A DNA stretch of 64,000 bases, taken from Okamejei kenojei. Taxonomy: Eukaryota. Of the stretch, positions 298 to 64,000 are shown in pieces. Under the pieces are notes generated by a model. It did not search any database, was not told the DNA's origin, and was given only the letters and a program-made list of their open reading frames with translations. Positions within the stretch are counted from its first letter, which is position 1. Each line of letters begins with the position of its first letter. The position numbers and the translations under genes were made by a program. The stretch covers positions 41,230,001-41,294,000 of the forward strand of contig CM069137.1 of the NCBI GenBank assembly GCA_035221665.1, given 5' to 3'.

Positions 298-3289
298 GAG
301 ACATCGCTAGAAGAACCCTCAAATGTGAGTATTAACTAATAACTATCAGATGATTTATCTTGTTGATCTCAATCATTAGCAGTGAAGTGTTAGCCACTCC
401 ATTCAGAATAGTGAGTAAGACAGCGTGGTGCCCCAGTTTGATATGGAGGGAGAGGATTCTGATATTTGATTTCATTGCATGATGGGTCTGGTCTCTAGTG
501 AAGATGAATTTGGCATCAACAGGACAGGATTACTGGATTAGTGACTCCTAAACTCACACCAGTAATCATCTCTGAGTGTGAATCTTCCCTGGAGGAAACC
601 AAGATTCAATTGAACAGATGGCAATTGACACCTGTGCTACCTGCCTTAGGGATATCCATTGACTCTGCACATCTGCTTTACCAGGTAGTATTTTGAATAT
701 TGGGGCATTGTAGGGAGTGAGACTTTGAGTTGAGCTTTCTCAGTCCAGTACTGCCTCATTGAATCAACCCTTGGGAATGTAGGATTAACAATCCCTCATT
801 TATAATTCACTATTACGTTATGCTTTGTGGAGGGACTCTAATTATGCTTGTTACTTACCAAATACATGCTGAGCTAATTTTGGAAATGTTAATGCTTCCA
901 TGCAGATGAAAAGCAAGTCAGAAGAAACTTCATTGGAAGAATCTTCAAATGTAAATTTGATTTGGGAATTGTCATCTCTTGACTTTCATTTGCAATAGGG
1001 TGTAAAACCTTGATTGATCTGTCAGAATGGAGATTCCAATTTTATCTCATAGTATGTTTGTTTCAAACCATGGAAGAGAGGATACTGCCTGGTCTTTGAA
1101 TTTTATCTTCCACCTCAACACCACTTTACTGAACTTACACTGTAACCCTTGATTCCTCAAACTGACAAAATCCTCTCAATTTCTATTCTGATTGAACTCA
1201 GCGACTGAGCCTCCATGGGTCTCTGGGGTGGTGAGTTCCAAAGTCCACCCCCCAGTAAAGAGGTTCCTCCTCAATTCAATTCTAATTTTGAGATTTTTAC
1301 ACAATCTCTAGATGTCTTAGCAAATACAATTGCTGCCTGTGCCACCTGCTAAAGGAATATCCATTGACTCTGCACAGCTCCTTTACAACCACTATTTTGA
1401 ATTGGGGCACTGTAGAGAAACAGAGAATAATTGAAAAATAGGTGCAGGAGTAGGCCATTCAGCCCTTCGAGCGAGCAATACCATTCAATATGATCATGGC
1501 TGATCATCTAAAATCAGTACCCTATTCCTGCTTTTTCCCCATATCCCTTGATTCCTTTAGCCTCAAGAGCTAAATCTAACCGTCTCTTGAAAGTGAGACT
1601 TTTAGTTGAGTTTCCTCAGTCCAACACTACATCATTGAATTAACATTCGTGAATTGCTTGTTCTGCTAGCTCTAAACCACAAAACTAGAATGTCCAGAGC
1701 TAACAATGAATCTATTATCATTCAATATTTAATACTTGTGCATGCTTGTAATTTACAATTTCCAATACAGATTATTGTCTTATAGTTCAGTTTCAATTCA
1801 GTTTAGTTTACTGTCATGTGTACTGAGGTACAGTGAAAAGCTTAAAACATATACACCAGGGTGCAATGAAATTCCTTGATCGCAGGAAGCTACCGAGGCA
1901 AAGATACATATAGTAAAAATAACAGTAAACACAATAGAAGACAGTAGTGCAAACTGAAGTACAATAATGGAATAAATAAATAAGGTAAAGTTAAGAGTAT
2001 GTGGCAGTAACTCTGCGAAGGGAGGGATAAAGAAAGAGGTGATTGTTTCAGGAGTTTGACAGCAATTCATATATTTTCAAAATTACTAATTAGTATCCTC
2101 AACTAAATATATAAACATTATTTCCAAACAGGACAAATCCAAATCAGCAGAGATATCACAGGAGGATCAGAAAATGTGAGTAGAAATAGAAAGGTTTTCA
2201 GTTGATCTAGCTGATCATGACTGCGTGTAAAAATGTTTAATATCTTGGTTTAAATATGTTAAAATAAAGCGAGAGACAGTATTTATTGTAACTCAATTCA
2301 TTGAGAAAGTGATTCCGGTTTGATTCCTGTGGGAGGGTTGGGCTGTGGGGGGGAATTGTTGACTTTAGCTCCAATACAAAGGATGGCGCTGTTTCTCTTC
2401 ATAGAAAAAGTAAGCTGAGTATCAATAGGATTGTTGCAATGCATCGCAAGAGCAATGTTTGTACCAATCACAAACAACAGAGCCATCATGTTGGTGAAGA
2501 ACAATGCTAATATACCCAATGCTAATGCATGGGAAGGGGGGTGATACCATTCATTACCCCACTGACCCCACTAACCCCATTTATCTAGACATTATTGACC
2601 ATTGTTGAGCTGCAGAACAGAAATGTTTTGGTGAGGTCTTTTCAACTCACATACTGAATCTCTAATATGCCCTGATATATTTAGGATCTTCATTATTTTG
2701 TCCAAAGGTTTTTCTTCGCATCCTTTCATTTAACAGGCTGAACATAACAAATATTAATATTTTCATGGTTAAAAGACATCAAAAGAGACATCAATTGAAG
2801 GGTCTTCCAATGTAAGTTCATCAGGAAATTCTTATCCATTAATTAATGGAATAATTCCACCACTTTTAGGTCTAGAATTTATCTCAGACACATATCAATA
2901 TTTGGCTGCACTTCAGATTGTAACATGTCCTAATCTGCATTTATCAGTGATTTGGCAAATCTAAATTTTAAAGTGATTCTTTACCCAGTTATAAATTTCA
3001 TCTATTTAAACCTTGTGTTTAGAGACAAACCTAAAATTGTAAATAATTGTCTTGTCAAACAGATGAAAAGCAAGTCAACAGAATTATCTCTGGAGGAGTC
3101 TTCAAAAGTAAGTGTAAACAGAGGCTTTGAGTCCATGTATTCATCGTTAAAACCAATGATTTAAAAACTTAAGACAGAGTAAGCCTCAGTCCCCAACAAA
3201 TTACAATTATTTGGTGTGTCTATTCCCAGGAAACAGAAAGAGGACTCAAGAGGAAGACACTAACCATGAAGGAAACTCCTAGTGCCTGA
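298..3289 (+). pseudogene. 3' half of SPP2-like gene copy 0 (Ser/Glu-rich microexons and last exon), probably disabled
   Basis: Truncated exon 298-324 (ETSLEEPSN|GTGAGT); 906-950 (MKSKSEETSLEESSN); 2132-2175 (44 nt, DKSKSAEISQE..., -1 frameshift); degenerate exon ~2768-2811 (...KETSIEGSSN|GTAAGT, no AG acceptor); 3063-3107 (MKSKSTELSLEESSK); last exon from 3230 with one extra nt relative to copies A/B. Introns and 3'UTR are homologous to copy A. Confidence 0.75.
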
Positions 3290-3480
3290 ACTCAGGTGAA
3301 CATAAGAAGACTGCATTCAGAATAAACCAGACACTGTCACCTGTATGTGCACATGCTCATATGCAAGGACAGGGGCCTGGAGCTCCTGCTTGTACATAAC
3401 TAGGAGATTCGTTATGGGAGTACTGTTGTCATGTCTGTTCATTTCTGTATATTATGTTCTAAATTCATTGTTGATCCACA

Positions 3481-3486
3481 AATAAA
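3481..3486 (+). terminator. Polyadenylation signal of copy 0
   Basis: AATAAA at the same 3'UTR position as in copy A (31510-31515) and copy B (45192-45197). Confidence 0.6.
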
Positions 3487-3769
3487 ATTATTTACAACAA
3501 TTCATGCATTTGATATATCTGAGGATATGTGAGAAACCAGAGAGGATATTGCGGAGCCATGGTTGAAATTTCTGAGTCATCTTTAAATACGGAGGGGTGC
3601 CTGAAAGACTGGAGGGTGGTAATGTTGTGCCTCTATTCAAGAAGGGCTGCAGAGAAAATGCTGGGAACTATAGGCTAGTGAGTTTAACATCTGTAATTGA
3701 AAGTTACCAGAGAGTATTCTGAGGGAAAGATTACAGGCATTTAGTCGGACAAAGGCTGAATAGGGGTAA

Positions 3770-4569
3770 AGGCGCTGTCCCACTGCGGCGACCTAATCTG
3801 CGCATTTAGAAGAGTTTGCCTTCGACTCAAACTCGCAGCATGGTTGACACGTGGACCTAGGCGGTCCTATGAGGTCACAGAAACTCTCCTTCATGCACGA
3901 GGGAAGTTCCCTAATGCTCGCAGCCTCAGTTTGGTCGAGGAAATATTTTATGGACGGTATGGTTATTTTGAACTCGGAGTGCAGTGGAATGGGCTCGCTA
4001 TGTAGTTACAGGCAGTCGAGGGCAGCCGTAGGCAATCTCCTTCACTGACTGGGCATTTTAATTGGCTCATTGGAGTTTTCAGGCCAAGGAAAACCGACTG
4101 GTATGTTAAAATACCCGCAAAACTTTATTAAAAGTTGTCAGGCTTCTTAAAAGTGTCTCCACTCCTTCTCCCCCCTTCTCTCCCCTTTCTCCCCCCTTCT
4201 CCCCCCTTCCCCCCCTTCTCCCCCCTTTGCTCCCCTTCTCCCCCCTTTGCTCCCCTTCTCCCCCCTTTGCTCCCCTTCGCTCCCCTTCTCTCCCCTTCTC
4301 TTGCCCCCCCCCCCCTGCGCTCCTCTAGAGGACTTACCATACAATGTGCAGCCGTCTTTTACCTTTCTGTTCATCATGGGTGTGAATTTCAGACAGCAGA
4401 GGCCCCTGCCTTTGCGATGTGTTTGTATGCGTGTGTGTGTGCGGTCGGTCGATCCAGCTCATGGTTTCATCGCTGATGGTCGATCCAGCTCAAGGTTTTT
4501 CAGGCGAGTGCCCTTGGGCTTGGAGGTCGAAGACAGTCGCTGAAAGGTCGCGTCAGTGGGACAGGCCCT
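3770..4569. mobile_element. Non-autonomous DNA transposon (PIF/Harbinger-like MITE) inserted in CR1
   Basis: Imperfect ~25-bp TIRs (AGGCGCTGTCCCACTGCGGCGACCT / AGGTCGCGTCAGTGGGACAGGCCCT) flanked by a TAA duplication (3767-3769, 4570-4572); CR1 sequence is continuous across it. Confidence 0.75.
4165..4316. repeat. Polypyrimidine low-complexity tandem repeat, (CTCCCCCTT)-like
   Basis: Directly visible C/T-rich short-period repeat inside the MITE. Confidence 0.9.
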
Positions 4570-4923
4570 TAATCAGCATGGTTTTGTATGTGGGAGATCA
4601 TGTCTTACAAATCTGTTTGGAGTTTTTTGAAGACGTAACCAAAAAGGTCGATGAGGGCAGAGCTGTAGATGTTGTATATATGGACTTCAGCAAACCATCC
4701 AACAAGGTTCCGTATGGTAGGCTGCTCTGGAAGGTTAGATTGCATGGGATCCAGGGAGATATAGCTGAATGGATAGAAAATTGGCTTCAGGGAAAGAAGC
4801 AGAGGGTGGTGGTGGAAGGTTGTTTCTCAGACTGGAGGCCTGTGACTAGTGGTGTGCCTCAGGGTTCGGTGCTGGTCCCGTTATTGTTTGTCATTTATAT
4901 CAATGATTTGGATGAGGACATAC

Positions 4924-4924
<1 letters not shown>

Positions 4925-4990
<66 letters not shown>

Positions 4991-5112
4991 ATTGTTTATA
5001 GGGCGCTTTCAGGACTCTCAAGGACACCTTACAATTAAAAGCATGCCACCATACAATTAAAACAAGTATGAAACAAAAACAACATATACAGCAACAATAC
5101 ACAATTCGGAAA
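4925..5112 (-). mobile_element. Short 3' end of an L2-type LINE/SINE with a (ATT)n tail, seen as (AAT)n at 4925-4988
   Basis: Minus strand reads ...GTGTCCTTGAGAGTCCTGAAAGCGCCCTATAAACAATG(TAT)n, resembling L2-clade 3' ends; it interrupts the CR1 RT just before KFADD. Confidence 0.55.
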
Positions 5113-8100
5113 GTTGTGGCAAGATTAGCAAGTTTGCTGATGACACAAAAGTGGGTGCGTTTGCGGATAGTGAAGATGGTTGTGAAAAATAGCAGCAGGA
5201 TCTTGATCGGTTGGCCAGGTGGGCAAAGGAATGGTTGATGGAATTTAATGCAGTGAAATGTGAGTTGTTAAATTTTGGAAAGTCTAACATGGACAGGACC
5301 TACGCAGTAAATGGTGGGGCTCTGGGTAGTGTTGTAGAGCAGAGGGAGCTCGGAGTGCAGGTGCATAGTTCCTTGAAGGTGGAGTCGCAGGTAGCTAAAG
5401 TGGTCAAAAAGGCTTTTGGCACATTAGCCTTCATTGGCCTTCATCAGCCAGAGTATTGAGTATGGAAATTGAGAAGTCATGGTACAGTGGTATAAGACGT
5501 TGGTGTGGCCGATTTTAAAGTATTGTGTTCATTTATGGGCACCGTAAAGGTATACCATTTAAATCAAAGAATATCATAGCAGATAAAGAGGGGAGGGGAG
5601 AAATTCACTCTACCCCACTTACTATGATAAATGTTTATGCTCCCAACTTTGATAACCCCAAATTCTTTATAAAATTCTGGATATAATTTCAGAGTTTAAT
5701 TATCAAAACATGACAATAGGGGGAGACTTCAATTGTGTTCTAGATACCATATCTGGATAAACCAGCAAAACAAAAAAGGATTAATATAAAATCTAAAACT
5801 AGTGAACTCCTAAATACATACATAAAAAAACACAAATATAACGGATGTATGGAGGATCGCTAATCCAGTTGGAAGGGAATACTCATTTTATTCAATGGTA
5901 CATAAAAGTTATTCACGTATCGACTATTTTTTAGTGGATACAAAATTAATTCTGTACACTCTAAATATCATAATACAACTCTAAATATCATAATAGTATT
6001 ATTTCTGATCACTCCCCGTTAACTTTTTTTCTTAAAATTAGAAGGAATGTCTGATAAAAAATAGTTCTGGAGATTTAACCCCCAAATTGTAAACAACTCA
6101 CAAGGTTGTACATATTTAAAACAGCAGATGAAATTCTTCTTTGAGACTAAAGATACACTAGGTATCTCACCCTCCTTATTATGGGAAGCTTTTAAGGCAT
6201 TCATTAGAGGAACTATAATTTCATATCAAGCTTTCCAAAATAAAAAGAACAACACTGAACAATTGCAGCTAGAACAACAAGTTAGACAATTAGGTAATGC
6301 CCAATAACCAACCATAGACAAACATAATAAGATGACAATATTGAAATATAAATTAAATAAAATGTTATCGGCAAGAGTAATAAGATTATTTCAAATTACA
6401 AAACAGGAAAACCTCGAATTCGGTGATAAACCACATAAACTCTTAGCACGTCAACTGAAAAAACGGGAAAAGGAAAATACAATTACTAAAATTAAATCAG
6501 ATAAAGGTTAATTATTAACATTGCCTAAAGACATTAACAAAAGATTTGCTCAATTTTATCAAAATCTATATACATCTAATACCTCTTTAGATAATATTAA
6601 AATTATAAACTTCTTAGACAATTGTAATCTTCCAAAACTTAACACGTTGGAACAAGAAGAATTAGGAGCTCAGATTACACTTAAAGAAATAGAAGAAACA
6701 ATAAACTCATTGAAGAATGGTAAAACGCCAGGACCAGATGGCTTTAGTAATGAATTCTATAAACGATTCTATGAGATAATTTCACCACACTTACAAAATT
6801 TATATATACATGCTTTTAAAGAAAATATACTACCAGAAACACTAACCGAATCAACTATTACTTATACCTAAAAAGGATAAAGATCTAAAAGAACCAGGTT
6901 CATATAGAGCCACTCTTAAATACAGATCAAAAAGTATTTGCAAAGACCATAGCAAGAAGATTGAGTAAATATGTTTAGTAAACTAATAAACCCGATCAAA
7001 CAGGGTTTATGCCCAAGAGATAACTCATTCAACAATTTGAGATGTCTAATTTAATATAATGTTATTCACATTAAAACTGAAGAAGAAGACTTATCAATTA
7101 TTTCACTGGATGCAGAAAAAGCATTTGATCAAGTAGCATGGCAATATCTGTTTTAAAGTATTGCAAACATTTTAATATGGGAGAGAATTTTATCTCATGG
7201 GTAAAATTTACTATATGACAAGCCGTCTGTTAGAATACTGAGACAATAATATATTATCTTCGAAATTCCAATTATCAAGGGCAATAGACAGGGGTGTGCA
7301 CTATCGCCCCTGCTATTTGCACTTGTGATAGAGCTTCTAGCAGAAAAGTATATGAAGCCATCTGAATATTCATGGGTGAAATACCAAACACTCAAACAAC
7401 AAAATGTCATTATACGCAGCCAACATATTATTGTACATTACAAATTCACAAATTATCATACCAAATATATTAAATTTAATAGAGGAAGATTTTTGGTTCC
7501 TTTTCAGGATATAGAATATATTGGAATAAAAGCGTAATTATGATGATAAAACCTCAAGAGCCGACACATCTGTTAAAGTCCCTTTTAGAATTGCAACAGA
7601 AAAATTCAAATATAAATCAATTATTTTAACGCAAACTACATCCTTTATCAACTAAACTGAATGTGTTGATTAAATTCTGGAAAACATTGGCGATGTCCTT
7701 AATAGGCAGAATAAATGCTATAAAAATTATCTTTTTAGCACAAATACTGTACCTATTTCAATCAATTACCGATATACTTACCAAAAAAAGTATTACAAAA
7801 ATTAGACTCTGATATTACAAATTTCATATAGGACTATAGATCACATAGAATCCAAAGAAAACATCTGTGTAAACCTAAAGAATTTGGGGATCTGACACAA
7901 CCCCAACTTGCTGTACTACTATTGGGCGGTGAATATCAAAAATATAATTTACTGTTGGACAGTTCTGCCCCAACAAGTAGACTGGATAAGAAACGGAGAA
8001 AGAGAATAGTTTTCCCTATAATATAGGAGCGATTTCTTCTCTCTCTGATAAAACTGAACAATATAATATATAAGAAGAATCCAATTATTCACAGAATAAT

Positions 8101-8436
8101 ACGAATTTGGAAACAAATAAAATTAACTTTAAAATTCAGAAATTTTTCTTTCCCCAATAGTCAACATCCCTCATTCAAACCATCTATTATTGATAAAACG
8201 TTTATCCATTGGGAAATAATAGGAATTAAAATGATTGGAGACATGTATGAAATGGGAAAACTTCTATCATTCCAACAATTACAATTAAAATATAATCTGA
8301 AAAGTAATCAATATTTCAAAATACCTTCAAATTCGAGATTAATTTGAAAAAAACACATACAAGGATATCAAACTCTAACCTCAGATTTATTAGATGAAGG
8401 GATGAACAGAAAGGCAGAATCAAACAATTTAAATAT

Positions 8437-8859
8437 ATAAGGTTGAACAAGTTAGGTCTTTATTCTTTGGAGCGCAGAAGATTAAGTGGGGACTTGATTG
8501 AGGTCTTTAAAATGATGAAAGGGATAGACAGAGTTGACGTGGATACGTTTTTTTTCCCACTGAGGGTGGGAAGATTCAAACAAGAGGGCATGACATGAGA
8601 ATTAAGGGACAGAGGTTTCGGGTAACGTGAGGGGGAACTCTTTACTCAGAGGGTGGTGGCTGTGTGGAATCAGCTTCCAGCAGAGTGGTGGAGGCAGGAT
8701 CGATTTTACATTTTAAAGAGTAAAGTGGATAGGTATATGGACGTGAAGGGAATGGAGGGGTATGGTCTGAGTGCAGGTAGATGGGACTAGGGGAAAACAA
8801 ATGGTCGGCACGGACTGGAAGGGCCGAGAGGGCCTGTTTCCGTGCTGTAATTGTTATAT
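8437..8859 (+). mobile_element. CR1 3' fragment nested in the L1-clade element; tail resumes at 13448
   Basis: RLNKLGLYSLERRRL... and a 3'UTR near-identical to the CR1 at 22281-24190; the TATGGTTA-type tail is split by the Gypsy element. Confidence 0.85.
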
Positions 8860-11800
8860 TGTGGGGTTACTATCCCGAAATTAAGGCGAGGAGCCAGGTG
8901 TAGGGAAGTACCTTTTTATTCAGGTCTCTCAATTCGTCAGGATGTCCAAAAAGAGAGCAAGATGGCACCCAAACCCTTGCCTTTAAACCCTCTGGTTAAG
9001 GGCCCGCCTCTGGACTGCACCATTCCCTGTGCCGAGGGGTTTGACTGTTAGGATGGGCCCGACCCTTGGGAGCCGCCACAGGACCCCCCCCCAGAACCTG
9101 ATTGTACGAAACGCACCGGCGGGCGCACAGCACGGCCGGACTGCGTGCGGGAGTGCGGGAGCACAGGTGGAGGGACAGGTGGAGGGACCGGTGGAAGGAC
9201 AGGCGGAGGGAGCCCGTGAGGGAGGGCGCCCTCGAGGCCGAGGTCGGGCAACCAGCACTGGCTGGTCAATGTCCAGATGTGCCGGCTTCAACCGGTTCAA
9301 TTGACACGGTCTCCGGGTGGCCCCCCATGTCCAACACAAAAGTCGTCTGCCCGTGTTGCAGCACTTTGAATGGGGCCCTCGTACGCCTCTGAAGCGGCAT
9401 CCGGTGGGCATCACGGCGCAGGAAAACGCAGGGGCCAGTCCCGGAGGGCTGATGGCACATGCGGGCGAAATGGTCCCATGGCGGGACATCGGGGACGGGT
9501 GCGAGGCTGCCAACTCGCTCGCGAAGGCGCTTTAGAGTGGATGAGGGAGTTCCTTGTTGCCCCAGTGCCGACCGGCATGAACTCCCGGGTACCGTGAGGG
9601 GCGATCCTAAACCGAGCTCCGCCGATGATGAGGCCAAATCCTCTTTGGGGGCAGTCCGATGCCCAACAAGACCCAAGGCAACTCGTCCATCCAGTCCGGG
9701 CCGGAGAGTCGTGCCTTCAGCGCTGACTTGAGCTGCCGGTGGAACCTCTCCACCAGTCCATTGGCTTGCGGGTGATAAGCCGTGGTGTGGTGTAGCCGCA
9801 CCCCCAACAAGTGAGGCCATGGCCGACCACAGCTCGGAGTGAACTGTGGCCCCCGGTCCGAGAAATGTGCGACGGCACCCAAAGCGAGCAATTGAATCCA
9901 GTGGGCGACAACGCACGAGCGCATGTAGCTGTTTGAAGTATCAGCCAAGGGAATGGCCTCCGGCCACCTAGTGAAACGGTCCCACCATAGTGAGGAGGTG
10001 GGTATGCCCCGGGACGGCGGAAGAGGCCCCCACGAATGTCCACATGGAGGTGGTCAAATCGCCGGTAGGTAGGCCGAACTCCCTGGAAGGGGTGCCCGAC
10101 ATGCCGCTGGATCTTGCCGTCTGGCACGGAATGCGGTTCGAGCCCATGTCCCAACCTGCTTGCGGCAACCGTGCCACCTGAACCTAGCAGCCACCAGTGC
10201 CGTCGTCGCCGGAATTGATGGGAGAAGCCAGCCCGTGGATCACTCGAACACCCCCGGCGCCATGCGTCAGGGACGATGGGGCGCGGCTGGACCGGGACGA
10301 CAACATCGCACAAGATCGTCGCCCTTCCAGGACCGAGGGGACATCCTCGGGCGAAGGCCGGAGATTGGCTGTCCGGGGATTGAGGGCGGGAATCTCAGCG
10401 TCGTGAGCTGCGCAATCCGCCAGGTCAGAAAAGTCAATTCCTGGTGCCAAAACCGCGAAAACGGCGTCGATGGCGGGGCGGACAATGCCGTCGGCCAACC
10501 CGGTTTCTCTCCAACCGCCTCGACGTACGAATTGATGTCGTAACACCGAAATGTAGGCCAACTGCCGCTGCGCCGTGCGGACACAGGTGTCGAAAGAAAC
10601 CTTTGCCAGGGCGAAAGAGGTGGCTTGTGTCCGTGTACCGGTGTAGGGCGCCCTCCAAAAAGTAACAGAAATGCTCCACCGCCAGGTACTGACCAGGAGC
10701 ATCGCAATCGAATGCGCTGTAATTTGGCCTAGCTCGGTTGATGTGACGCTGAAGAAGGCTAGGGCCCGTCCAACCTCCCGTCCGTCAGTTTGTTCCAGCA
10801 CGGCACCGACTGCAACTCCGAGGCGTCCACCGTGAAGCTGGCGGGGCAATTCCCCGCGATGCTCCAACGTACGCCCGAGCAAGGGCCTCCTTCGCGCCGT
10901 CAAATGCCAGCCACCGCCGCTTTGGTCCACTTGACGCTCTTATGCGCCCACCCCCCAAATTGATACAGTGGCCCGCATGATGTGGCTGCCGGATGGGCAC
11001 AAAACGGTGATAACATGCCACCACTTCCGACAAACTCCTGCAGGCCTCGCACCGATTATGGACGGGGAAACCGACGTATGGCGTCGACCCTGTCCTCATG
11101 GGAAGGCACGCCTTGCGATATCACGCGGTGGCCGAGAAGTCGATCTCTGTTACTACCCCAAACGGCATTTGGCGATGTTGACAGCCAAGCCATGCACGCA
11201 GACCTCTGACAAAGCTGCCGAGGTTGGCGCAGATCTCCTGCTGCGAGCGGCTGGCCACCAGAATGTCGTCGAGGCAAGACAAAAACAAAGTCCAGGCCAC
11301 GACACACCCCGTCCATCTGGCTTTGGAATGCTTAGCACATTTTTGAGGCCCGAACGGCAATCCGCAGGAATTCGTAAGGCCGAACGGCGTGATGACGCCG
11401 TCTTGGGTACATCCTCCGGGTGGACTGGGATCTTGTTCTAACCCCGTACCAGATCCACTTTGGAAAATATAGTAGCCCCAGCCAAATGGGCGGTGAAGTT
11501 CCCTGAATTGTGGGGTACGGGGTATCGAACTGGGCGGTTGTTGCTGCATCAGCCGCCGAAAATCCCCGCAGGGTCCGCCATCCCGCCGCTAGCTTAGGGA
11601 CCACCAGTGGATGTGGGATGCCCATGGGCTGCTTGAAGGCGGACCATCCCCAAGGACTCCATGTGCTGGACTTCCTGCCGTGCCAGACTTATTTTAATCC
11701 GGCGGCTGTCGGCGTGCTCGTGCGTGGAGAGGTGGGCCAGTAGTCTGAATGAAATGATCCACCCCGTCAGACTGGGGGTCGTAACCCGAAAACTGTGGTC

Positions 11801-13447
11801 AGTAATTCGGAACGCTGCTAATATCCTGGGGCCGGAAGCGGGAATCCACAGACGACAGGGGACGACCAACCGGCTCATTCCAATCGCAGCGTGATCGGCT
11901 CATCGTGCGGCGTTGACCAATACGCCTGACAGCCTGACGTCCACTAGGATGGAATGCGCCCGAGGAATCGGCCCCGAGCAACGGCTGGTGAGACGTCCGC
12001 ATGGTGAAGTACAGCCAGGAGAAATGCAGGAGCCGAACACAATCGGGACTCATTGCGCAATTCATACGTGCGGATGGGGCTGGACCATTCGCAGCGGTGA
12101 GGACGGGCCCCGCGCTTACCGGAACCGAAAGTCAGCCAGCGAAGGGGGCAGGACGCTCAGCTCTGCCCCCGTTAATCGACGAGGAAGCGGGTCCGGAGCG
12201 CCGATCCCAGGCGAAGAGTCGGTGGATCAGCCGGACAGCCGTAGGACTATATGCAGCCGGCCCAGGCGTTTCCGGTAACGTGCACGACTGACAGCATCTC
12301 CGGGCTCGGCGCCCCAGTGCTGGGTGGTTAATAGCACCCAGCGCTTCCTGTTGGCACCTTGGAGCCTTGCTGCCGGTATGGAACAGCAGGTGCAGTACCG
12401 CGGTGCGGCCGCGGGGGGCGATCTTATCGGCCTCCGGGATGCAGCTGCAACTCCTCCATCCACCCGCTCCCCCGCCCCACCGGAGGAAATCGTGAGGGAA
12501 GCTGCCGGAGTGACGTCATCGGAGCGCGCCGTCTGCGTCGCGTCAGCGAGCCTGGCAACGGCCATCGCGTTGACGTCATCAGAGCGCGCCGTCCATAAGC
12601 GCATTAACCTGCTGGCCTGGCAACGGCCAGCGCGTTGACGTTATCTGGCGCGCGCCATCCACAGCGCGTCGTACGCGCCTACCGAGGGCCCTGAGGTCGG
12701 TGAAGGAGACGTCCGTGAGCTGCAGACGGATGTAGGCCGGCAGCAGAATGCAGGTAAATATATCGAACAGTAGGCACGCGTGTGCCCATTCTCCCTACCC
12801 AACAGCGCGACCATCTCCTTGAGGAGGCTCGATGGCCGCCGGTCGCCTATGGCCCTCCATATGAAGGATCCTTGCAGCGCTCTTCATCCTGCAAGACCAT
12901 ATATTTCAAGCAGAGCTGCTTAAGGCCGCGGTATTTCTCGGTGGCCGAGGGTCCGCAATGAAGTCTGTGACCTCATCAACCGTGTCCCGTCAAGGGCCCC
13001 CACCAGATAATAGAAGCGAGTGTCGTCGGCCTTATTCTTCCCCGCAGGTTTGAATTGGGGCCTCCCTCCGCCTGCTGAAACCAGATGTGCGGCCCGGGTG
13101 GACCAAAAGGTAGGGCAAGTTCACCGAGACCGCGTTCCAGAGACAGGGCCGGTTGGCCATTTGAGGGGAAGCTTTGCTCTCCATCATGGACAACAATGGA
13201 ACGTCTGGGTCACCAATGTGGGGTACTATCCCGAAATTAAGGCGAGGAGCCAGGGTAGGGAAAGTACCTTTTTATTCAGGTCTCTCAAATTCGTCAGGAA
13301 GTCCAAAAAGAGAGCAAGATGGCACCTCCCCAAACCCTTGCCTATTAAACCCTCTGATAAGGGCCGCCTCTGACTGGCACCATTCCCCTGCCGATGGTTT
13401 GGGTTTTTTACTGTTAGGATGGCCCGACCCATGTGGAGACCGCCACA
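8860..13447 (-). mobile_element. Full-length but frameshifted Gypsy/Ty3 LTR retrotransposon
   Basis: TG...CA LTRs at 8860-9080 and 13217-13447; ATAT TSD (8856-8859, 13448-13451); PBS TGGTGACCCAGACGT (tRNA-Trp-like, 13201-13215); G-rich PPT next to 9080; RT (LDDILVAS) and integrase (HHTTAYHPQANGLVERFHRQLK) in Gypsy order. Confidence 0.92.
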
Positions 13448-13835
13448 ATATGGTTATATGGTTGTTAATTATATTTATATAATAAATATTTAAAATATAA
13501 AATCACCAATGACAGAGGCAATTAGAAGGGACTGGGAACAAGAATTATTGATAAAAATTCCATAAAGACAGATGCGAAAAATACCTATTATATGTACATA
13601 AATGTTCGATTAATGTAAGGCATAGATTTAATTCAATTTAAAATGTTACATAATACTATATTATTCGAAACTAGACTGAATAAAATGTTTCCCAACTCTC
13701 TCCCCCCACCCCCTAATTTGTGACAAATGTCTAATCTCAAATTGCCACTATAACACATTGTCCTTTGTCTCCTGTACAAAACTTCACAAATTTTGGAACA
13801 AAATTTTGGAACTTTTACAAAACTATTTAACATAA

Positions 13836-53180: not shown

Positions 53181-55660
53181 AAGGTACACAAAAGGCTGGA
53201 GAAACTCAGCGGGTGCAGCCGCATCTAAGGAGCGAAGGAGATAGGTGCCGTTTTGGGTCGAGACCCTTCTTCAGACTGGTCAGGGATCAGGGAAATAAGA
53301 GATATAGACGGTGATGTGGAGAGATAAAGAACAATGAATGAAAGATATGCAAAAAAGTATCGATGATAAAGGAGTTAAAGAGGAGGTACCAAGCGGAGGC
53401 TTGGCTATAGTTTCGCCGAACACTTCCGCTCGGTCCGCAATAACCAAGCCGACCTCCCGGTGGCTCAGCACTTCAACTCCCCCTCCCATTCCGTATCCGA
53501 CCTCTCGGTCCTGGGCCTCCTCCACGGCCAGAGTGAGCAACAACCCAAGTTGGAGGAACAGCACCTCATATTCCGCTTGGGGAGTCTGCATCCTCTGGGC
53601 TTGAACATTGAATTTTCTCAATTCTGTTAACCCTTGCTGTCTCCTCCCCTTCCCACCTCTCCCTCAGCCCTCGGGCCCTGGCATTCCCTCTATCTCTATC
53701 TCCCTCCCCCACCCTAGTCGTACTAGCTTCTCATTTTCACACCACAAACAGCTTACAATGGCTTGTTTCCTTTATCATCGATACTTTTTTGCATATCGTT
53801 CATTCATTGTTCTTTATCTCTCCACATCACCGTCTATAACTCTCGTTTCCCTGATCCCTGACCAGTCTGAAGAAGGGTCTCGACCCAAAACGTCGCCTAT
53901 CTCTTTCACTCCTTAGATGCTGCTGCACCCGCTGAGTTTCTCAAGCCTTTTGTGTACCCTCGATGATAAAGGAAACAGGCCATTGTAAGCTGTTTGTAGT
54001 GTGAAATTGAGAAGCTAGTGCGACTAGGGTGGGGGAGATATATAGAAAGAGAGAATGCCAGAGCCCGAGGGCTGAGGGAGAGGTGGGAAGGGGAGGAGAT
54101 AGCAAGGGTTAACAGAATTGAGAAAATTCAATGTTCAAGCCCAGAGAATGCAGACTCTCCAAGCGGAATATGAGGTGCTGTTCCTCCAACTTGCTCACTC
54201 TGGCCATGGAGGAGGCCCGGGACCGAGAGGTCAGATACGGAATTGGAGGGGGTTGAAGTGCTGAGCCACCGGGAGGGAAGAATTGACAAGGGAGTTGCGG
54301 AGGGAGTGGTCTTTGTGGAAGGCAGACAGGGGGGGAGATGGGAAGATGTGGCGAGTGGAGGGGTCACGTTGGAGGTGGCGAAATTGGCGTATTTGCCGGC
54401 TGGTGGGGTGAAAAGGTGAGGACCGGGGGACTCTGCCCTTGTTGCGAGTGGGGGAATGGGGAGAGAGGGCAGTGTTGCGGGGTATGGAGGAGACCCTGGT
54501 GCTGCCCCATCTATAGTGGGGGAGGGAAATCCCCGTTCTCTGAAGAATGAGGACATTTGTGATGACTTGGTGTGGAACACCTCATCCTGGGAGCAGATGC
54601 GGCGTAGACGGAGGAATTGGGAATAGGGGATGGAGTCCTTACAGGAAGCAGGGTGGGAGGAAGAGTAGTCCAGGTAGCTGTGGGAGTCAGTTGATTTTTA
54701 GTGGATGTCGGTCAGGAGTGTATCACCTGCAATAGAGATGGTGAGGTCAAGGAATGGTAGGGAAATGTTGGAAATGGTCCAAGTGTATTTGAGTGCCGGA
54801 TGGAAGTTGATGGTGAAATGGATGAAGTCAGTCAGTTGTGTGTGGGTGCAGGAGGTGATACCAAAGCAGTCGTCGATGTAACGGAGGTAGTGGTTGGGGA
54901 TGGGGCCCTGGTACGCCGAGAACAAGGATTGTTCGACGTACCCGACAAAGAGGCAAGCGTAGTTGGGGCCCATGCGTGTGCCCATAACTACGCCTTGTGT
55001 TTGGAGGAAATGAGAGGAGTCAAATGAGAAGTTATTGAGGGTAAGGACCAACTCCGCTAGGCGGAGGAGGGTGTCAGTGGATGGGTATGGGTTGCCCCTC
55101 TGGTCGAGGAAGAACCGGAGGGCTCTGAGACCATCCTGGTGGGGGATGGAGGTGTAGAGTGACTGGAAAGATGAGAGGATGGGGGCCTGGAGAATGGAAT
55201 GTGCGGAGCCGACGGAGAGTGTCTGAGATGTCTTGAACATAGGTGGGGAGGGATTTAACAAAGGGGGATAGGATGGAGTCAAGGTATGTGGAAATGTGTT
55301 CAGTGGGGCACGACAATGGGTCTGCCGGGGCAGTCGGGTTTGTGGATTTTGGGGAGAAGGTAAAATCGGGCCGTGCGGGGCTGGGAAATGATTAGGTTGG
55401 AGGCTCGGGAGGGTAGGGAGCCGGAGTTGATGAAGTCGGTTATGGTGCTCGAGATGGTGGCCTGGTGTTCGTCAGTGGGGTCATGGTCCAGGGGTAAGTA
55501 GGAGGAGGTGTCCGAGAGTTGGCGCGTGGCCAACTGTTAATGAGATTGACGCGCCAGACTACCACGGCACCTCCCTTGTCGGCGGGTTTGATAACCCAGT
55601 CTGGGTTGTTACGGAGTGAGTCGATGGCAGTACGTTCGGGGGGGTGGGGAAGTGATTGGA
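53181..55660 (-). mobile_element. Penelope-like element (RT + GIY-YIG) with inverted/tandem pseudo-LTR copies
   Basis: KPADKGGAVVVW, FYLLPKIHK, GTRMGPNYACLF, YLRYIDDCFG on the minus strand; 53181-53373 is the reverse complement of ~53768-53960; CTGAAGA-stem hammerhead-like motif. Confidence 0.88.
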
Positions 55661-55665: not shown

Positions 55666-57770
55666 TCACAACAACAAGGAACAACATTCCTTGTTGTTGT
55701 GAGCAAAGTGTACTACAATACACCAGTCAGCATCAAGGCGAACCACATTTATTGATGAGTCTAGCTTCTTGCTCCATAGAATAGCCACACCCCCTTGTAT
55801 CCTACCTCTGACTATTTCCATGCCAAGGTTAGTTGTAGACTCCCCAGCCCCATGAAAGTTGTCATTGGGAGAATTGAGTTTGTCCAAGTCTTGCTTCGCT
55901 AAGAATGTCTCTTGCATACATAGTATGTCACAGTTCTCCAGAAGGTTGCCAACAATTGAGCGGCGAGCTTTATCCCCTGTGCTCTGGCCCAAACGCAGGC
56001 CACAACACTTGTACGATAGTACCCGAATGTTCATTTAGCGAGACTAGTGAGTGCCCCTTGATCCGATGACTCCAACCCTGCGCGGCTCGTAATAGTGCCG
56101 GACAAATGCCCCTTCTGGCCAGAGCTCCGGATTGTACATTTCGCCAACCTAGCAATGTTACAACATTTTGAAATTAAAAAATTAAAGTCTGCAATTAATC
56201 CCATCAGATAAAGCATAAAAATAAGTTTAATTTGACACCTAATTCACTTTCATATCTTCAGTATTAAAAATGTTATGGCCATTTTCATACTTTCAAATTA
56301 GCAACTTGTTTCCTATTGCTTTTCTATTGACTTAACACAAAAGTTGTGATCAAGGACAGTCAAAAGCCCATAAATTTCTTAACAATTAAGAGAACTGAAA
56401 TAAATTTTCAGTTATTATAGATTGAAGCATTCTGAAACAAATATGAAACAATCTTACTTGGATGACCTGAAATTAAAGCATATAATTAGTTAGTTACCCA
56501 ATTGTAGCTAATTACAAAATTCAATTACTAGATCTAAACATCTATCCATTTCTTAAGAAAAAAATAACATTTTTTTTAAAGCCTAAGTGTCCAAATAACA
56601 TTCACACAAGAATTCACAATATAACATGATTTTTAAATCTAATTGTCATTAACTTATAGGCCAAATTGAAGGAATTTTGTGTTTAATGCCCGTAAATTAA
56701 TGGGCATATTAATCAGCTTGCAAGTGGGATTTTCTGGAACGTGATGGATTGGAACGTTGCGGTTGCGGTGAATTTAAACCCCATATCAGCAGGAAAAATT
56801 CTGCCGGTTCGTATGGGGAATAAATCACCGTTTCGCAACATGAAATATTGATTAAGGTCATCTAAACAAACAAGTTTATATGAAAAAATAAGCAGCTTTC
56901 ACTTACCTGTCCCCTACGTAAAATCCGTCCCCGTTGTCGGCATTCACGGCATTAGGAGCTAATTTTTATTTTACTGCAGCGCTGAAATAGTCGGGCGATT
57001 TAAAAAAAAAATTTAACTTACCGGCAGTCGAACGAATCTTTAGAAAAATCTTGCACTCCGAGAAAATAAAGCTCCGGATGGCAAGGGAAAACCGCACTTT
57101 AACCCCGCCCCCCCCCCAAAGGCGCCAAAATCGCGCACACGGCCAGCGACAGAACTGCAGCACCGCTAAAGGTAAGTTTTTGTAACATACCTACATTACA
57201 TTCCACAGATGCTTTAAATGAACAGTATCTTCTGTGTACAGTGTCAATCTTTTGACAGGTAACCTCACGGCCAAGTTTTTCTTTAGGATACACAGATAAA
57301 GATTTGGCGTTTAGGTTCAGTGAAAACCTGGAGGCAAAAACACTCACCAGCTTTGTCTTGATCATTTTAATATTACCCGCACCACAGCCCCAAGTCAAGT
57401 CAGTGGTGCGCTCCAATGCACACACTGGAGTAGTGATCAAGGTGCACTCCAATACACCCACTCGCCGATCAATTTCCAATGTGCTGGCACTAAAATCTTC
57501 GCTTACATCAGCCTGTAGCTGCATGACGTGCTTCATAGAACGGACCTCAGCGTACAGCTGCTCCATTCTCCCAAGTAGGCTCGAGCCATCCATGTTAGTA
57601 AATGTCACCGGCGGCAGTTCATCCAAGTAATGAGAGACAAATCTGGGAGTAGTCTCCCCATTCCCATTCATTACTTTAAGGCAACTCTTTATGTTGTTAA
57701 CGTCTTTCTGTGCCCCTTTATGGTCTAGAGTAACACCCGCCATCTTTGCATGCCCGTTGACCATGGCCGA
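55666..57770 (-). mobile_element. 5' part of a LINE (RTE-X-like): ORF1 and the start of the APE endonuclease
   Basis: ORF1 FVSHYLDELPPV...SFK...(MITE)...ELWPEGAFVR; ORF2 from 56034 MNIRVLSY..GL...DILCMQETFL...GRIQGGVAILW. Clade assignment is tentative. Confidence 0.65.
56150..57193. mobile_element. Non-autonomous DNA transposon copy 2 (TAG...CTA ends)
   Basis: Same termini and body as 32188-34790; it splits the LINE ORF1. Confidence 0.8.
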
Positions 57771-58325
57771 TGCACCGGCTCCCCCGCTGCCTCTTGCCCA
57801 GCCCCAAACTCCTCCGCAATATATCTGTGAATATTTTGGATATTATAAATTATTTTAACTTTTTTCAACTGTTCTACCACTTAGGAATAAAGACCTATTG
57901 GCAGAACAAACCTTCTGTGGAAAATGAGGATGGTATGTGGACAGGGCCTGTGCCTCAATGGCTCCTGCTCTTTTAACAGCTCCGACAGGAGGATCTAAGG
58001 ACATAATATGTTTATGCAGTCTTCACACCTTCAGTGAATCACACTATCGCTCTTTCAGACTCTCTGACTATTTGAATTGGGGAGAGCAGGGTTAGGTCAG
58101 ACCATGGGCTGTGGGCTAGGTGGGGCATCATCCACTAATGATTCTGGGAGAGTCAGATAATTTCTCGGAGAGTCAGAAGAAAAACAACCTCTAAGACACA
58201 GATCTAGGGGAAAGGGAAAGGCAGAAGGAAGGAAGGGACATGGATGGAGTGAAAGCCAGAAGGGATTAAAAGAAAATAAGTTTGAGAGCACAAGATAAGA
58301 GAAAATTGCATGAGAGCAAGCAGTG

Positions 58326-58493
58326 AGGAGGTGCTTGGTGAACTCACTGTGGTGGATGTTAAATTATGTGTTTATTGTGTGTTTTGTTTTAATTTATTAC
58401 ATGTTATGACTGCAAGGTAACAAATTTCGTTCAGACCGAAAGGTCTGAATGACAATAAAGGAATCTGAATCTGAATCTGAATCTGAATCTGAA
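58326..58493 (+). mobile_element. Short LINE 3' end (Rex1/Babar-like) with a hairpin and (GAATCT)n tail, specific to unit C
   Basis: AATTTCG-TTCAGACC-GAAA-GGTCTGAA-TGACAATAAA followed by GAATCT repeats; absent at the homologous position in units A and B. Confidence 0.55.
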
Positions 58494-60184
58494 CAGAATA
58501 ATGAAAGCTGAGTTAATAGGACGTATACTGATTGAATGTACCAGAGGAATGTGGAGGGGTATAGGGAATCTGGATTTAAACATGTTGGAATTGCTTATGG
58601 TCTGAAAATATTGGCCTCAATGCTGAGTCAGGAAGGCCGGGTGAGAAGATGCTGTGCTGTTCCTCAGGCTTACACAAAAGTGTTAATGATGGAGATGTCA
58701 GAGAGCGAGCAAGACAGATAACTGAAGTGTCTGGAGGATTCGCTCTGTACTTGTAGGATTCTTTCTTTCATCTCTCTGTTGCAGACGCACACATACGTTA
58801 CTCACACAATAACCCCAATAATATTGCAATAATAACAATGATAGTCTATGTAGTTCAGAGCTTATTTGAGGTTGTAGTATTAATATCTGAATAGCTCTAG
58901 GGAAGAAGCTGTCCCTGAACCCAGATAGCTTCTTCCCTTACAGTTTTCAGGCTCCTGTACCTTCTTCCCGATGGCAGGGGTGAAATGAATGTGAGGCCAG
59001 GGTGGTGTGGGTCTCTGATTATGCTGGCTGCCTTTTTGAGGCAGCAATTTCAATAAATCCCTTCGATGGCGGGGTGTTCAGAGCCGAAGGTCAGAGCCGG
59101 TGATGGACTGGGCAGCGTGCACAACTTTTTGTGTACACTTTTTCAAAATGTTACCCATTTGTGCCACTACACAGGTTTTCAATTCCTCCCCTTCAGATTC
59201 TCAGGCTCTATCTGTATCCACACACTTTCCGTCCATTTATTCCATGACTTCGTTTTTGATGATAAATTTTCTGCAGGCATTTTACAAAGAACTCTTTGAA
59301 AGTTCATGTACACCACTTCAACCACACTGCCCCATTAAATATCTCAAACATTGGTCAAAAGCAATTTGAAAAACTCTGCTTAATTTCCTTTAAAAATAAA
59401 TCTGAATGGTTAATAATTTAGTCGCTGGTCTTGTTTCTGTAGCTCTGTATCACTGCGGTTGGAATGACTGGCACATAACTACTGGGTTTGTTTTGGGAAA
59501 CTGTACATCTCCTGTCCTCTGGCGCCACCAGAGTCTGTGGCGGAGTGGAAGAATGCAGATGCTGATTTATATCAAAGATAGACACAAGGTGCTGGAATAA
59601 CTCAGCAGGTCAGGCAGCATCTCTGGAGAAAAAGGATGAGTGACATTTTGATTCAGGACCCTTTCCCAGTAGGAAGACGCGTCACCCATCCATTTTCTCT
59701 AGAGATGCTGCCAGACCCGTTGAGTTATTCCAACACTTTGTGTCTATTTTTGGTATAAACCAACATCTATAGTTCTTTGTTTCTAAATATTGACCCTGAA
59801 TCCTCTCAGCCACCTCAAACACATTCCATCACTTGGAATTAGTTTATTATTGTCACTTATCATCGGGAAGAAGGTATAGGAGTCTGGAAACTTCCCAGTT
59901 CAAGAATGGCTTCTTCCCAACAACCTTCAAGCTCTTGAACAATATCCAACACTAACCTTAACTGTAAATGTCTATGGACTTTCTTTGATTGCACTTTGGG
60001 TTTTTTTGCACTAGAATTGTGGCTTTTAATTTATTGAATTTCATTTTTTTTAATATAAATTCTCTGTATGTATTACATTCATAGGCCAGTTATGCCGCTG
60101 CAATAAGAATTTAATTTTTATGTTATTGGTATATATGACAATTAAGCACTCTTGACTCTTGACTCTCTATCCAGATAAATCATA

Positions 60185-61220
60185 TAGCAATGTTACAAAA
60201 TTTTGAGACTTTAAAAATCAAGTCTGCAATTTATCCCATCAGATAAAGCATAATAAGAAGTGTAATTTGACACCTAATTCACTTTCATATCTTCAGTATT
60301 AAAAAAGTTATGGCCATTTTCATACTCGGAAATTAGCATCTTGTTCACTAATGCTTTTAAATTGACAACACAAAAGCAGTGATCGAGAACAGACAAAAGA
60401 TCATAACTTTCTTAACAATTAAGAGAACTGAAATAAATTTTCAGATTATAGATTGAAGCATTCTGAAACAAATATGTAACAATCTTACTTGGATGACCTG
60501 AAATTAAAGCATATAATTAGCTAGTTACCCAATTGTAGCTAATTACAAAATTCAATTACTAGATCTAAACATCTATCCATTTCTTAAGAAAAGATTAACA
60601 TTTTAAAATAGCCTAAGTGTCCAAATAACATTCACACAAGAATTCACAATATAACATGATTTTAAAATCTCATTGTCATGAATTTATAGGCCAAATGGAA
60701 GGAATGTAGTGTTTAATTCCTATAAATTAATGGCCATTTAAATCTTAATGCTAGTGGGATTTTGTGGAGCACGATCGTTTGGAACGTTGCGGTTGTGGTG
60801 AATTTAAACCCCATATCGGCAGGAAAAATACAGCCGTTTCGTATGGGGCCTGAATCACCTTTTCGCAACTTAAAATGTGGATTAAGATAATCTTAAGAAG
60901 CACGTTTATATGGAAAATAAAAGGCTTTCCTTTAGCTGTCCCGTACCTGAAATCTGTCCCGTTTATCGGCGTTGACGGCATTAGAAGCGGCTTTTTATTT
61001 TACTCCAGCGTTGAAATTGTCCAGCGATTTAAAAATAAATTCACAGAACGGCCGTCGGAACAAATCTTCAGCATTTGCTCGCTCACCGAGAAAATATATC
61101 CAGGACAGGCGGTAGAAAACCGCATTTTATCACCGCCCCCCACTCAAAAGCGCCAAAATTGTGCACACGGCCAGTGGAAGAACTGCAGTGCTGCTGAAGG
61201 TAAGTTTTGTAACATTCGCA
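60185..61220. mobile_element. Non-autonomous DNA transposon copy 3, ~1.2 kb upstream of copy C
   Basis: Same termini; AATCATA duplication on both sides; empty site in unit A (~25535) and unit B (~39700). Confidence 0.82.
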
Positions 61221-62260
61221 AATCATACCATACATGAGTACAAGAGGTAATGAAAAAGAGAAAATAAACAGAGTGCAGAATATAGTGTTACAGCAACAGA
61301 GAAAGTGTGGGTTTAACAAAAATCAAGTTGCACAATGAGATAGAATGGAGGAGTGCAAATTCATCCCCAGCATATGGGAGGTCTGTTCCAGAGTTTTATA
61401 ATAATGGCGAAGAATGTACAAACAAGGACCTGAAGATGCTGTTTTACCAAGGAAAGATCCAAAATGCTGGAGTAACAATGGGTCGGGACCCTTCTTCAGA
61501 TCCTTCTTCTTAGTTACTCCAGGATCCCGGTTAGCGGCATGTCAGGAGGATCCCAGTGAGCTATGCAGCAGGAGCATCCCACGATCCTGCTGAGTTGGTT
61601 CTTGATTAAGTTTGCTGTTTTTCCCAGCCAGTATGAAGTGTATATGGAGTCAATGAGACAATGTTTGTTGTACTTGTCCACACCCACAACTCCCTGCAGT
61701 TTCTTATGGTCTTGGGCAGAACTGGTGTCAGGTTGTGATGCATCCTGATATAATAATTTCTATGGTGCATATGTTGGAATCATTAAGTATTTATTTGAAA
61801 TATGTTGATGGTCCTTACTGTTGTGCTCACTGGCCCTCGCTTCATTGTGGTTGCTCCGAACAAATTGTTGATGATATCAATGCCTAGGAATTTGAATCCC
61901 TTGATCATCTCCACTTCAGCCCCATTGACGGAGACTGGGGTGGGTACTCCACCTCGTTTTTTGAAGTCAGTGACCAACTCCAAGGTTTAGCTGACATTGA
62001 TCATGTTTCCTGCAGCAGTATTCTGGAAATCCAAGTACATTCCTGGGGCATTGGCAGTGCACTGCAAATACATTTGTACAAATTAGAGTTCATTGTTTCT
62101 TCGCTTTGGTGAATTTATTATTTCATATTCTGAGGAATAAAATCTGATGCCGTGCCTCTGCCACAAAATCTAAACACGATGCTGACGCGTGGAGGAAGCT
62201 CTGTCCATAAATGGAGCCCACCTTTCATTTGATTCCGGCGCCCACGACCAACAAGTTGAG

Positions 62261-62306
62261 CAAACATGAGTCAATGTTTGAATGTGGTTGAGGAGCAGGA
62301 TATAAA
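62261..62306 (+). promoter_or_regulatory. Proximal promoter of copy C
   Basis: CAAACAT-GAGTCA-ATGTTTG palindrome containing TGAGTCA (62267-62273), TGTGGTT 62283-62289, TATAAA 62301-62306. Confidence 0.65.
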
Positions 62307-62398
62307 GACCGAAGGCAGCGAGGTGAAGGCAGATCGAGAGAGAGAAGCAGCAACTTTACTCTGAGACTACCCAGCTGGCTGATCCCACACGAGGCAGA

Positions 62399-63973
62399 AT
62401 GAAATCCTTCCTCCTCGCCATCGCTGCCGTGCAGATCCTCCACTGCTCAGGTAGGTACTGGGGAGAGGGAGGGTCTCAGAAAGCAATGAGTTACTGGTAA
62501 TGAGCTTCAGTCAGTGATAATTCACCAATGTGTAAAAAGTATTCACTGTTCTTTGTTGGAATGATTTGTACAACTTTCCTTCTCTCTCTGCAGGAGTGCC
62601 AAGCACCAAGGATGCTCTGAGAGCCTCAGTTGCAAAACTGAATGAAATCACCGAGATCACCAACCTGTGTGCGATCACCAGGAGAGGTGTAACAAATGTA
62701 AGTGGATCCTGGTCTAATTGTGTTTCACAGACTCGGCTCTGCAGTGTTGTGCAACTTAGTTGTCTCCTTTAACTTGTGCCTGGAGTAAATTAATGACAGA
62801 AAGCATCAAAGGGGAACTGATGGGTATGTGAGGGATAGAATAGGTTAAAGGGTTGCAGGGCAACAAAGAGAGGAGGAATACGACAGATGATGGATAGAAT
62901 AGTTTGGGATTGTTCTGTTGGGTACCAGAAAATAACCGAAGGGTAGAATAGCCTCACCCTTTTTAATTAGATTAGGTGTGTAAGAAGGAACTGCAGAGCC
63001 TGGTTTAAACCCAAGATAAACACAAAAAGCTGGAGTAACTCAGCGGGACAGGAATCACTGGAGAGAAGGAATTGATGACGTTTTGGGTCGTGACCTAACA
63101 ACACCCATTCCTCTCCAGCGATGCTGCCTGTTCCGTTGTGTTACTCCAGCTTTTTGTGTCTATCTTCTTTAATTAGATTAGGTATGTGCTCAGATAAGAT
63201 AATATATAAACATAAGAGTTTAATTACTAAACATGAACTCTATATTAGCAGGTTTCAATGCATATCAGATCAAAAATTTAAATCCAAAATCTGTACTTAA
63301 CTCAGGAAATTTTGAACTAGACGAATGTTTTGGAATAAAGGTTGTAATTTTACCTTTGGTCAAATTAAGTCTCTTGCTCATTATGGGTGTTAATGCTGGC
63401 ACCGCCAATCTGCTAAAGTAACAGCCTGTGTCTAAGCTTTATCAGAACTTTGTAATAACACTAGATATAAGACTTATCAATAAACTATTTTCTTTTCATC
63501 AGACCTATCGGACGGGTAAACTGTCATACAACGTGGATTTAACATTCACCGTGAAAGAAACTGTCTGCTCCAAGAATTCTGGACATGAATTTGGTGATTC
63601 CGGTTGCACCTTCCGCCCTAAAAAGATTGCTGTAAGTGCAGAGTTATATTTTGAAGCATTTAAACCTCTGAGTATAACGGGTAACATCACAGAACGGGTA
63701 ACATCACAGAAATAATCACAGATTATTTCATAGAAATTACCATACCTACAAAGAAAAGTCTGAGAATTGTGTTATATGATATGATTCAATGTTGTGCTTG
63801 GAGTCATTAATATTTCCCTGCATTTTGCTTTATTTTCACAGGAGAAAGGGTTTTGCAAAAGCCGCGTGGAATATTTTGCTGATAAAGTGGCTGACATTGA
63901 TGTGGAGTGTGAAGGTCTGAAGACCATTGACAGCGAGAGTGACTCAATAGAATCGAGTGAAACCAGTATTGAG
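62399..63973 (+). CDS. SPP2-like copy C, exons 1-4 (gene continues beyond the window)
   Basis: Exons 62399-62450, 62594-62697, 63503-63631, 63842-63973; GT-AG, open frame, near-identical to copy A (MKSFLLAIAAVQILHCSG...EFGDSGCTF...DIDVECEGLKTIDSESDSIESSETSIE). Confidence 0.85.
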
Positions 63974-64000
63974 GTAACCACACAGTTATACAACTCAGGG

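Follow-up and report, generated by a model that had tools for sequence, protein, structure and literature searches.

Bony vertebrates have a single spp2 gene, expressed mainly in the liver, and cartilaginous fishes have four clades of it (PMC13188829, 2026). What, then, do the several spp2-like copies crowded into one segment of the genome of the skate Okamejei kenojei represent? We analysed a window of 64 kb (64,000 nucleotides; assembly GCA_035221665.1, contig CM069137.1, positions 41,230,001 to 41,294,000, forward strand), to which all coordinates below refer. Self-BLAST and exon mapping agree with the initial annotation that it holds four spp2-like copies, all on the same strand and head to tail, termed here 0, A, B and C (Table 1); a tblastn search with 69 homologs, covering both strands of the window, revealed no others. 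On the combined analysis, the locus is very probably a segment of the skate's elasmobranch spp2.3 tandem cluster, the intact copies of which would encode a secreted protein of mineralising chondrocytes with a tail of Ser-x-Glu (SxE) motifs.

Identity and affinities of the copies

Copy A is, as first described, intact: its nine exons encode 209 amino acids, and every intron is bounded by GT..AG. Exon 3 by itself matches the Pfam domain Spp-24 (PF07448; E=1.4e-5, 25.6 bits), falling slightly short of the cut-off of 26 owing to a match of just 31 residues, and all 69 proteins that it retrieves are shark or ray proteins carrying PF07448, with the best identities in Amblyraja, Leucoraja and Rhinoraja, in keeping with the SPP2 identity assigned at the outset. 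The proteins nearest to copy A are skate Spp24-like proteins, and its identity to one of them, Amblyraja P0002, is 87%. The domain cysteines at residues 43, 74, 87, 100 and 118 are invariant across the homolog alignment, and exon 1 encodes a hydrophobic 17-residue leader that is kept in the homologs and is signal-peptide-like by its sequence. Behind the domain lies a Ser-rich region; the protein bears 12 SxE motifs and has an isoelectric point (pI) of 5.0, and S, E, D and T make up 62% of its last 91 residues. Searches for a PDB sequence matching P0002 and for Rfam matches found none, and an AlphaFold model of a homolog alignment (first row P0025, a protein from outside the window), which showed a helix and four strands, was too weak to be used (mean predicted local distance difference test score, pLDDT, 46.9).

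A tree of exons 1-4 built with 65 of the 69 homologs (four rows were dropped) groups A, B and C with Amblyraja P0002 and P0003 (support 99/90), the accessions of which adjoin those of Ara5441 and Ara5442 in Table S14 of PMC13188829. An outgroup tree, quickly made from 46 chosen rows and with the clade names of its non-catshark rows assigned by inference, places the three copies within a clade supported at 97% (Shimodaira–Hasegawa-like approximate likelihood ratio test, SH-aLRT) that holds six catshark spp2.3 proteins and excludes spp2.1, the divergent Ara5440 group, the spp2.Like-type rows and the bony rows. These placements make A, B and C probable members of the spp2.3 clade. Of the tail modules described below, those of copy A best match P0002 and P0003, and the five of copy 0 best match, at 51-53 of 63 residues, a sub-family with at least five modules that occurs in three genera of skates.

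The core finding, an expansion of spp2 in elasmobranchs, is already published. According to PMC13188829, spp2.3 underwent independent recent tandem duplications, with up to 15 copies in Amblyraja radiata; SxE motifs accumulated; mineralising chondrocytes of catshark express spp2.3; and dosage selection was proposed. The copies studied here resemble that cluster (Ara5441/Ara5442 and catshark spp2.3s1-7) in their leader, their cystatin-like domain with its cysteines and their SxE tail, as well as in being tandem, same-strand and partly recent, high-identity duplicates. The initial annotation had inferred that a normally single-copy gene was amplified in one lineage, which can no longer be maintained: sharks and rays in general have expanded spp2 in tandem (PMC13188829), Amblyraja paralogs share the sub-family of A, B and C, and the sub-family matched by the tail of copy 0 extends over three skate genera.

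It had also named dosage-selected matrix, defence or venom proteins as the likely type, of which the matrix part stands, given the chondrocyte expression in catshark, and the defence and venom parts find no support here. A cathelicidin-like expansion of the latter kind could appeal to a weak match of exon 3 to the Pfam Cathelicidin family (E=0.009, below cut-off). However, Spp-24 outscores Cathelicidin on that exon, the tail is acidic (pI about 5) rather than a cationic peptide, and the catshark orthologs are skeleton-biased (PMC13188829), which together make such an origin very improbable.

A tail of 45-nt exons

The tail of copy A consists of four exons of exactly 45 nt, lying between phase-0 introns and each encoding two SxE motifs, at module positions 5 and 9. 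The four exons are mutually alike (21-34 of 45 nt identical in pairwise comparison), and of the eight introns of the gene only the first, in phase 1, departs from phase 0. In two runs taken to be RNA, X19 and X20 (from organisms G and H and from two studies, aligned at 85% likeness), contigs join 27027-27954, 29193-30314 and 30358-31098 with GT..AG ends; X19 also spans the last intron, and a further three introns are covered by mapping across copies. Seven of the eight predicted introns were recovered among the 15 joints listed (there were 3917 further joints), the exon 3-4 joint not being among those listed. Comparison covered four of 24 runs, all consisting of contigs, so that depth is uninformative for copy number or expression; what the joints support is the predicted exon structure and not that these copies are expressed. 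At 30334, an X20 contig carries a 12-nt in-frame insertion in exon 7 that corresponds to the four extra residues of Amblyraja P0002 and P0003.

The same period recurs in the homologs. When the tails long enough to be scored were autocorrelated (15 of 69 were too short and left out), the best lag was 15 residues in 44 of 54, and for 40 of these 44 none of 200 shuffles scored as high; by eye, the lag-15-positive elasmobranch tails contain one to seven units. None of 35 scored sequences from more distant relatives had a 15-residue period (16 of 51 were too short, a different tail cut was used, and five clusters are named as bony vertebrates), and the elephant shark protein has short internal repeats in place of the 15-residue units. 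Bony SPP2 resembles the skate protein in its PF07448 domain with a Ser/Glu stretch directly behind it, but has one serine stretch and no 15-residue array, and is encoded by a single copy with mainly hepatic expression (PMC13188829). Tail modules appear to have been gained and lost among copies. Because a 45-nt phase-0 exon can be duplicated, deleted or skipped without a frame shift, such changes would leave the remainder of the protein in frame.

Two further kinds of variation were seen in the tails. The last exon (31261-31330, 44943-45010 and 3230-3295) is read in three frames among skate paralogs, as judged from predicted proteins: frames 0, 1 and 2 of the copy A exon resemble the C-termini of P0002, P0005 and P0008, respectively. 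In the elasmobranch Spp2 proteins P0028, P0033, P0034, P0042, P0044, P0112 and P0119, a basic Lys/Arg-rich tail, partly with 15-residue spacing, replaces the acidic modules. No earlier description of spp2 tail exon modules was found in the literature searched, which largely missed subscription journals, and the words exon, intron, pseudogen and conversion have 0 occurrences in the main text of PMC13188829, a check that its figures and FASTA supplements lie outside. Relative to that main text, this skate adds the exon-module tail, the broken copies, the three last-exon frames and its own copies.

This architecture recalls the SCPP family, the genes of which, including caseins and elasmobranch scpp, are likewise clustered and encode secreted, acidic, SxE-bearing proteins from many short exons that are duplicated and skipped (PMC9122587, PMC12470106). 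SCPP genes are grouped by exon-intron structure, are mostly phase 0 and originated from the 5' exons of sparc-L (PMC9122587), and in casein genes exons are duplicated and skipped on a large scale (PMC12470106). Copy A shares the acidic SxE-bearing product, as its composition attests. SCPP genes differ, however, in deriving from and sitting beside sparc-L (PMC9122587) and in having no folded domain, whereas spp2 has SPP2 ancestry, keeps its cystatin (Spp-24) domain and has a phase-1 first intron. By these sequence features, the spp2 gene is SCPP-like in architecture and not a member of the SCPP family.

Duplication, decay and constraint in the array

As initially reported, the units share kilobases of upstream DNA: self-BLAST matched 20850-22277 and 24194-26700 of A with 36762-40856 of B and 57817-62390 of C. 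The spacer also belongs to the repeated unit, with 2846-3512 resembling 30877-31541 and 19631-20188 resembling 31537-32105; the 3' flank of copy 0 picks up at 19631, on the far side of an insertion of about 16 kb, and copy B has the continuation of its own near 52900. Over 2273 upstream columns, A, B and C diverge by substitution at 6.6-9.5%; the figure is 6.2-7.9% over 836 columns of introns 1-3, and 2.2-2.4% over 417 columns of exons 1-4. Because their non-coding DNA is 6-9% diverged and they carry copy-specific insertions, A, B and C are paralogs, not haplotypes. Uncollapsed haplotypes or an assembly artefact, which the silence of read depth on copy number in the four contig-only runs would permit, would have to account for three versions 6.2-9.5% apart in non-coding DNA, for insertions with target-site duplications of 15 and 8 bp (the very observation named at the outset as arguing against haplotypes), for a long interspersed nuclear element (LINE) found only in A and for a deletion found only in B. 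In addition, contigs of DNA run X1, perhaps the source sample and then not independent, fit the B side with 0 differences and the A side with 1, and several paralogs are annotated in related skates, leaving an artefact extremely improbable.

The divergence of copy 0 from A and B is 29%, compared with 6.5% between those two across the same 3' region, and copy 0 therefore represents an older sub-lineage outside the A/B/C burst; the array, as compared here, is a mixture of old and young duplications. An intron-2 insertion common to A and C had suggested mosaic ancestry, a reading rejected since some 35 bp of flank are missing from B as well, indicating a deletion in B. Across 25490-26649 and the corresponding DNA of B and C, the A-B pair is more alike than elsewhere, with 21/20/52 private changes against 48/48/46 further upstream. 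It is a fairly weak hint that some 1.1 kb of proximal upstream DNA may be an A-B conversion tract (chi-square 21.2, df 4, p=3e-4, with the partition picked after the data were seen and one non-homologous patch excluded). The proximal promoter has lost 28 bp in B, and in C it contains some 70 bp of non-homologous sequence.

In exons 1-4, the ratio of nonsynonymous to synonymous substitution rates (dN/dS), a check proposed in the initial annotation, is below 1 in every pair: 0.19 (A-B), 0.37 (A-C) and 0.36 (B-C). Only 4-5 nonsynonymous changes were observed where 20-25 were expected from the intron rate (p=8e-8, 4e-6 and 5e-5); purifying selection has been maintained on the exons for the cystatin domain in all three copies. 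Gene conversion as the cause of the high exon identity is unsupported because synonymous divergence of these exons matches the intron rate.

The tails have fared differently. Copy B is eroding, as had been noticed: its exon 6 donor has changed from GT to GC, exon 7 and its acceptor are deleted near 44040, and exon 8 contains a TGA at 44820. Its cystatin domain is intact, with an additional Cys at codon 90, and the predicted product of 182 amino acids retains 8 of the 12 SxE motifs of A. As a general rule, nonsense-mediated decay acts on stops located more than about 50 nt upstream of the last exon junction; that of copy B lies 3 nt upstream of it, so the mRNA should escape. Copy B may thus be a shortened functional version instead of a pseudogene. 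Copy 0, correctly described as more diverged and damaged, has a cut exon 5 and two exons of 44 nt; its exons 1-4 were not found in the window by tblastn with the 69 homologs, and it is very likely dead. A DIRS-like identity considered for the element that cuts it found no support, its open reading frames (ORFs) having no Pfam match. Copy C is open through exons 1-4 up to the window end, intact as far as visible. Of the claim that the cluster is open at both edges, the right one holds, since C runs off the window, and the left one follows only by inference from the unseen exons of copy 0. With B and copy 0 damaged and A intact, the proposed birth-and-death decay is borne out.

Damage to two of four copies, transposon-rich spacers and the one copy of elephant shark (PMC13188829) would also suit mostly neutral turnover of a recombination-prone, repeat-rich array, in which one or few copies suffice and number is unselected. 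Set against this are the nonsynonymous deficit in all three cystatin domains, that of B included, and the expression of all seven catshark spp2.3 copies in skeletal tissue (Table 2 of PMC13188829). We regard neutral turnover as unlikely, though deserving far more weight than an artefact or a defence function.

Table 1. Coordinates of the spp2-like copies and associated features in the window
Feature	Position	Strand	Remarks
Copy A, exons 1-4	26729-26780, 26924-27027, 27954-28082, 28293-28424	+	signal-peptide-like leader, cystatin-like Spp-24 domain, first Ser/Glu stretch
Copy A, tail exons 5-8	28543-28587, 29149-29193, 30314-30358, 31098-31142	+	four 45-nt phase-0 exons
Copy A, last exon	coding sequence 31261-31293, feature 31261-31515	+	10 codons, stop, 3' untranslated region, AATAAA at 31353 and 31510
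Copy B	40885-44975	+	exons 1-4 open; exons 1-6, 8 and 9 retained
Copy B, exons 5, 6, 8 and last	42346-42390, 42955-42999, 44781-44825, from 44943	+	exon 6 with GC donor
Copy C, exons 1-4	62399-62450, 62594-62697, 63503-63631, 63842-63973	+	open frame; window then ends
Copy 0	295-3290	+	broken 3' half, older sub-lineage of probable spp2.3 type; tail exons only
Copy 0, exons 5-8 and last	295-324, 906-950, 2132-2175, 3063-3107, from 3230	+	exon 5 a remnant; exon 7 of 44 nt
Copy 0, extra exon	~2768-2811	+	44 nt, AG acceptor lost
Repeat terminus cutting copy 0 exon 5	1-296		229-297 resembles 18364-18431; 261-290 resembles 14162-14191 inverted
Upstream DNA of copy A	20850-26728	+	common to B and C; interrupted by A-specific LINE
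Upstream DNA of copy B	36762-40884	+	
Upstream DNA of copy C	57817-62398	+	contains C-specific 1043-bp element
A-specific insertion	27134-27240		107 bp; 15-bp target-site duplication; site twice in A, once in B and C
A-specific LINE	22277-24193	-	RVT_1 at 23362-23817
C-specific element	60177-61219		1043 bp; 8-bp target-site duplication; terminal inverted repeats
Nested transposable-element block	3513-19630		~16 kb just behind copy 0; RVT_1 at 4386-5057

Several other elements occupy the window. At 48630-50831, inside a LINE, lies an apparently young element, in which a pair of direct repeats of 276 bp, 98.9% identical to each other, accompanies a GC-rich interior of about 1.65 kb with tandem repeats; no Pfam match was found in its ORFs, and it looks like a non-autonomous long terminal repeat (LTR) retrotransposon. 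An LTR-type element at 8860-13447 has terminal direct repeats 87% identical and a decayed GC-rich interior, the scanned ORFs of which have no Pfam match. Three copies of an element of about 1 kb with terminal inverted repeats, which we take to be hAT-like from its 8-bp duplication, are found at 32188-34791 (holding an insertion of about 1.8 kb), 56150-57194 and 60185-61215. A long inverted-repeat structure at 53183-54276, its arms 91-95% alike, adjoins decayed reverse-transcriptase-like ORFs at 54128-55471.

A putative phosphoprotein array and skeletal mineralisation

The history of this probable segment of the spp2.3 cluster, and the function that we propose for it, are as follows. Whole units of gene plus spacer were duplicated head to tail and then split by transposon insertions, with unequal crossing-over presumably changing gene number; tail exons were lost (B) or broken (copy 0), and purifying selection held the domain exons. 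By analogy with the catshark orthologs, intact copies would yield a secreted cystatin-domain protein in mineralising chondrocytes, and from the same orthologs and the biology of Fam20C, its Ser-x-Glu tail could be phosphorylated and bind calcium phosphate in the cartilage matrix. Dose would then be set at two levels, through gene number and through how many 45-nt phase-0 tail exons a gene has, and might be under selection.

Several points weigh against this reading. The assignment to spp2.3 instead of spp2.2 depends on the tree, among whose rows no catshark spp2.2 was recognised, and on the statement in PMC13188829 that spp2.2 is single-copy. The contigs that join exons, of putative RNA origin, come mostly from organisms G and H at 85% likeness and do not show these particular copies to be expressed, and ten of the 54 scored homolog tails have a best lag other than 15. 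The selection tests draw on few substitutions, 9-10 per pair, from three pairs that are not independent of one another. Finally, many SxE sites might inhibit mineralisation instead (PMC13188829).

More speculatively, and in our view a little short of an even prospect, spp2.3 may have convergently reached an SCPP- or casein-like architecture from a cystatin gene, with the 45-nt exon and its two Fam20C sites as the repeat unit; phosphate load per protein and copies per genome would vary independently and could tune mineralisation. It would be a case of a mineralisation protein family reaching an SCPP-like gene structure from another ancestor.

The expansion itself is not new, and the exon-module anatomy is an added detail of modest interest. 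It bears on the hypothesis, put forward in PMC13188829, that skeletal mineralisation and the number of spp2 copies go together, by sharpening what is counted: a copy that is broken, like copy 0, would be omitted, a truncated one, like B, would be given a weight, and the number of phospho-modules would be included. If the convergent scheme is true, the total of SxE modules would be a countable genomic predictor of skeletal mineralisation.

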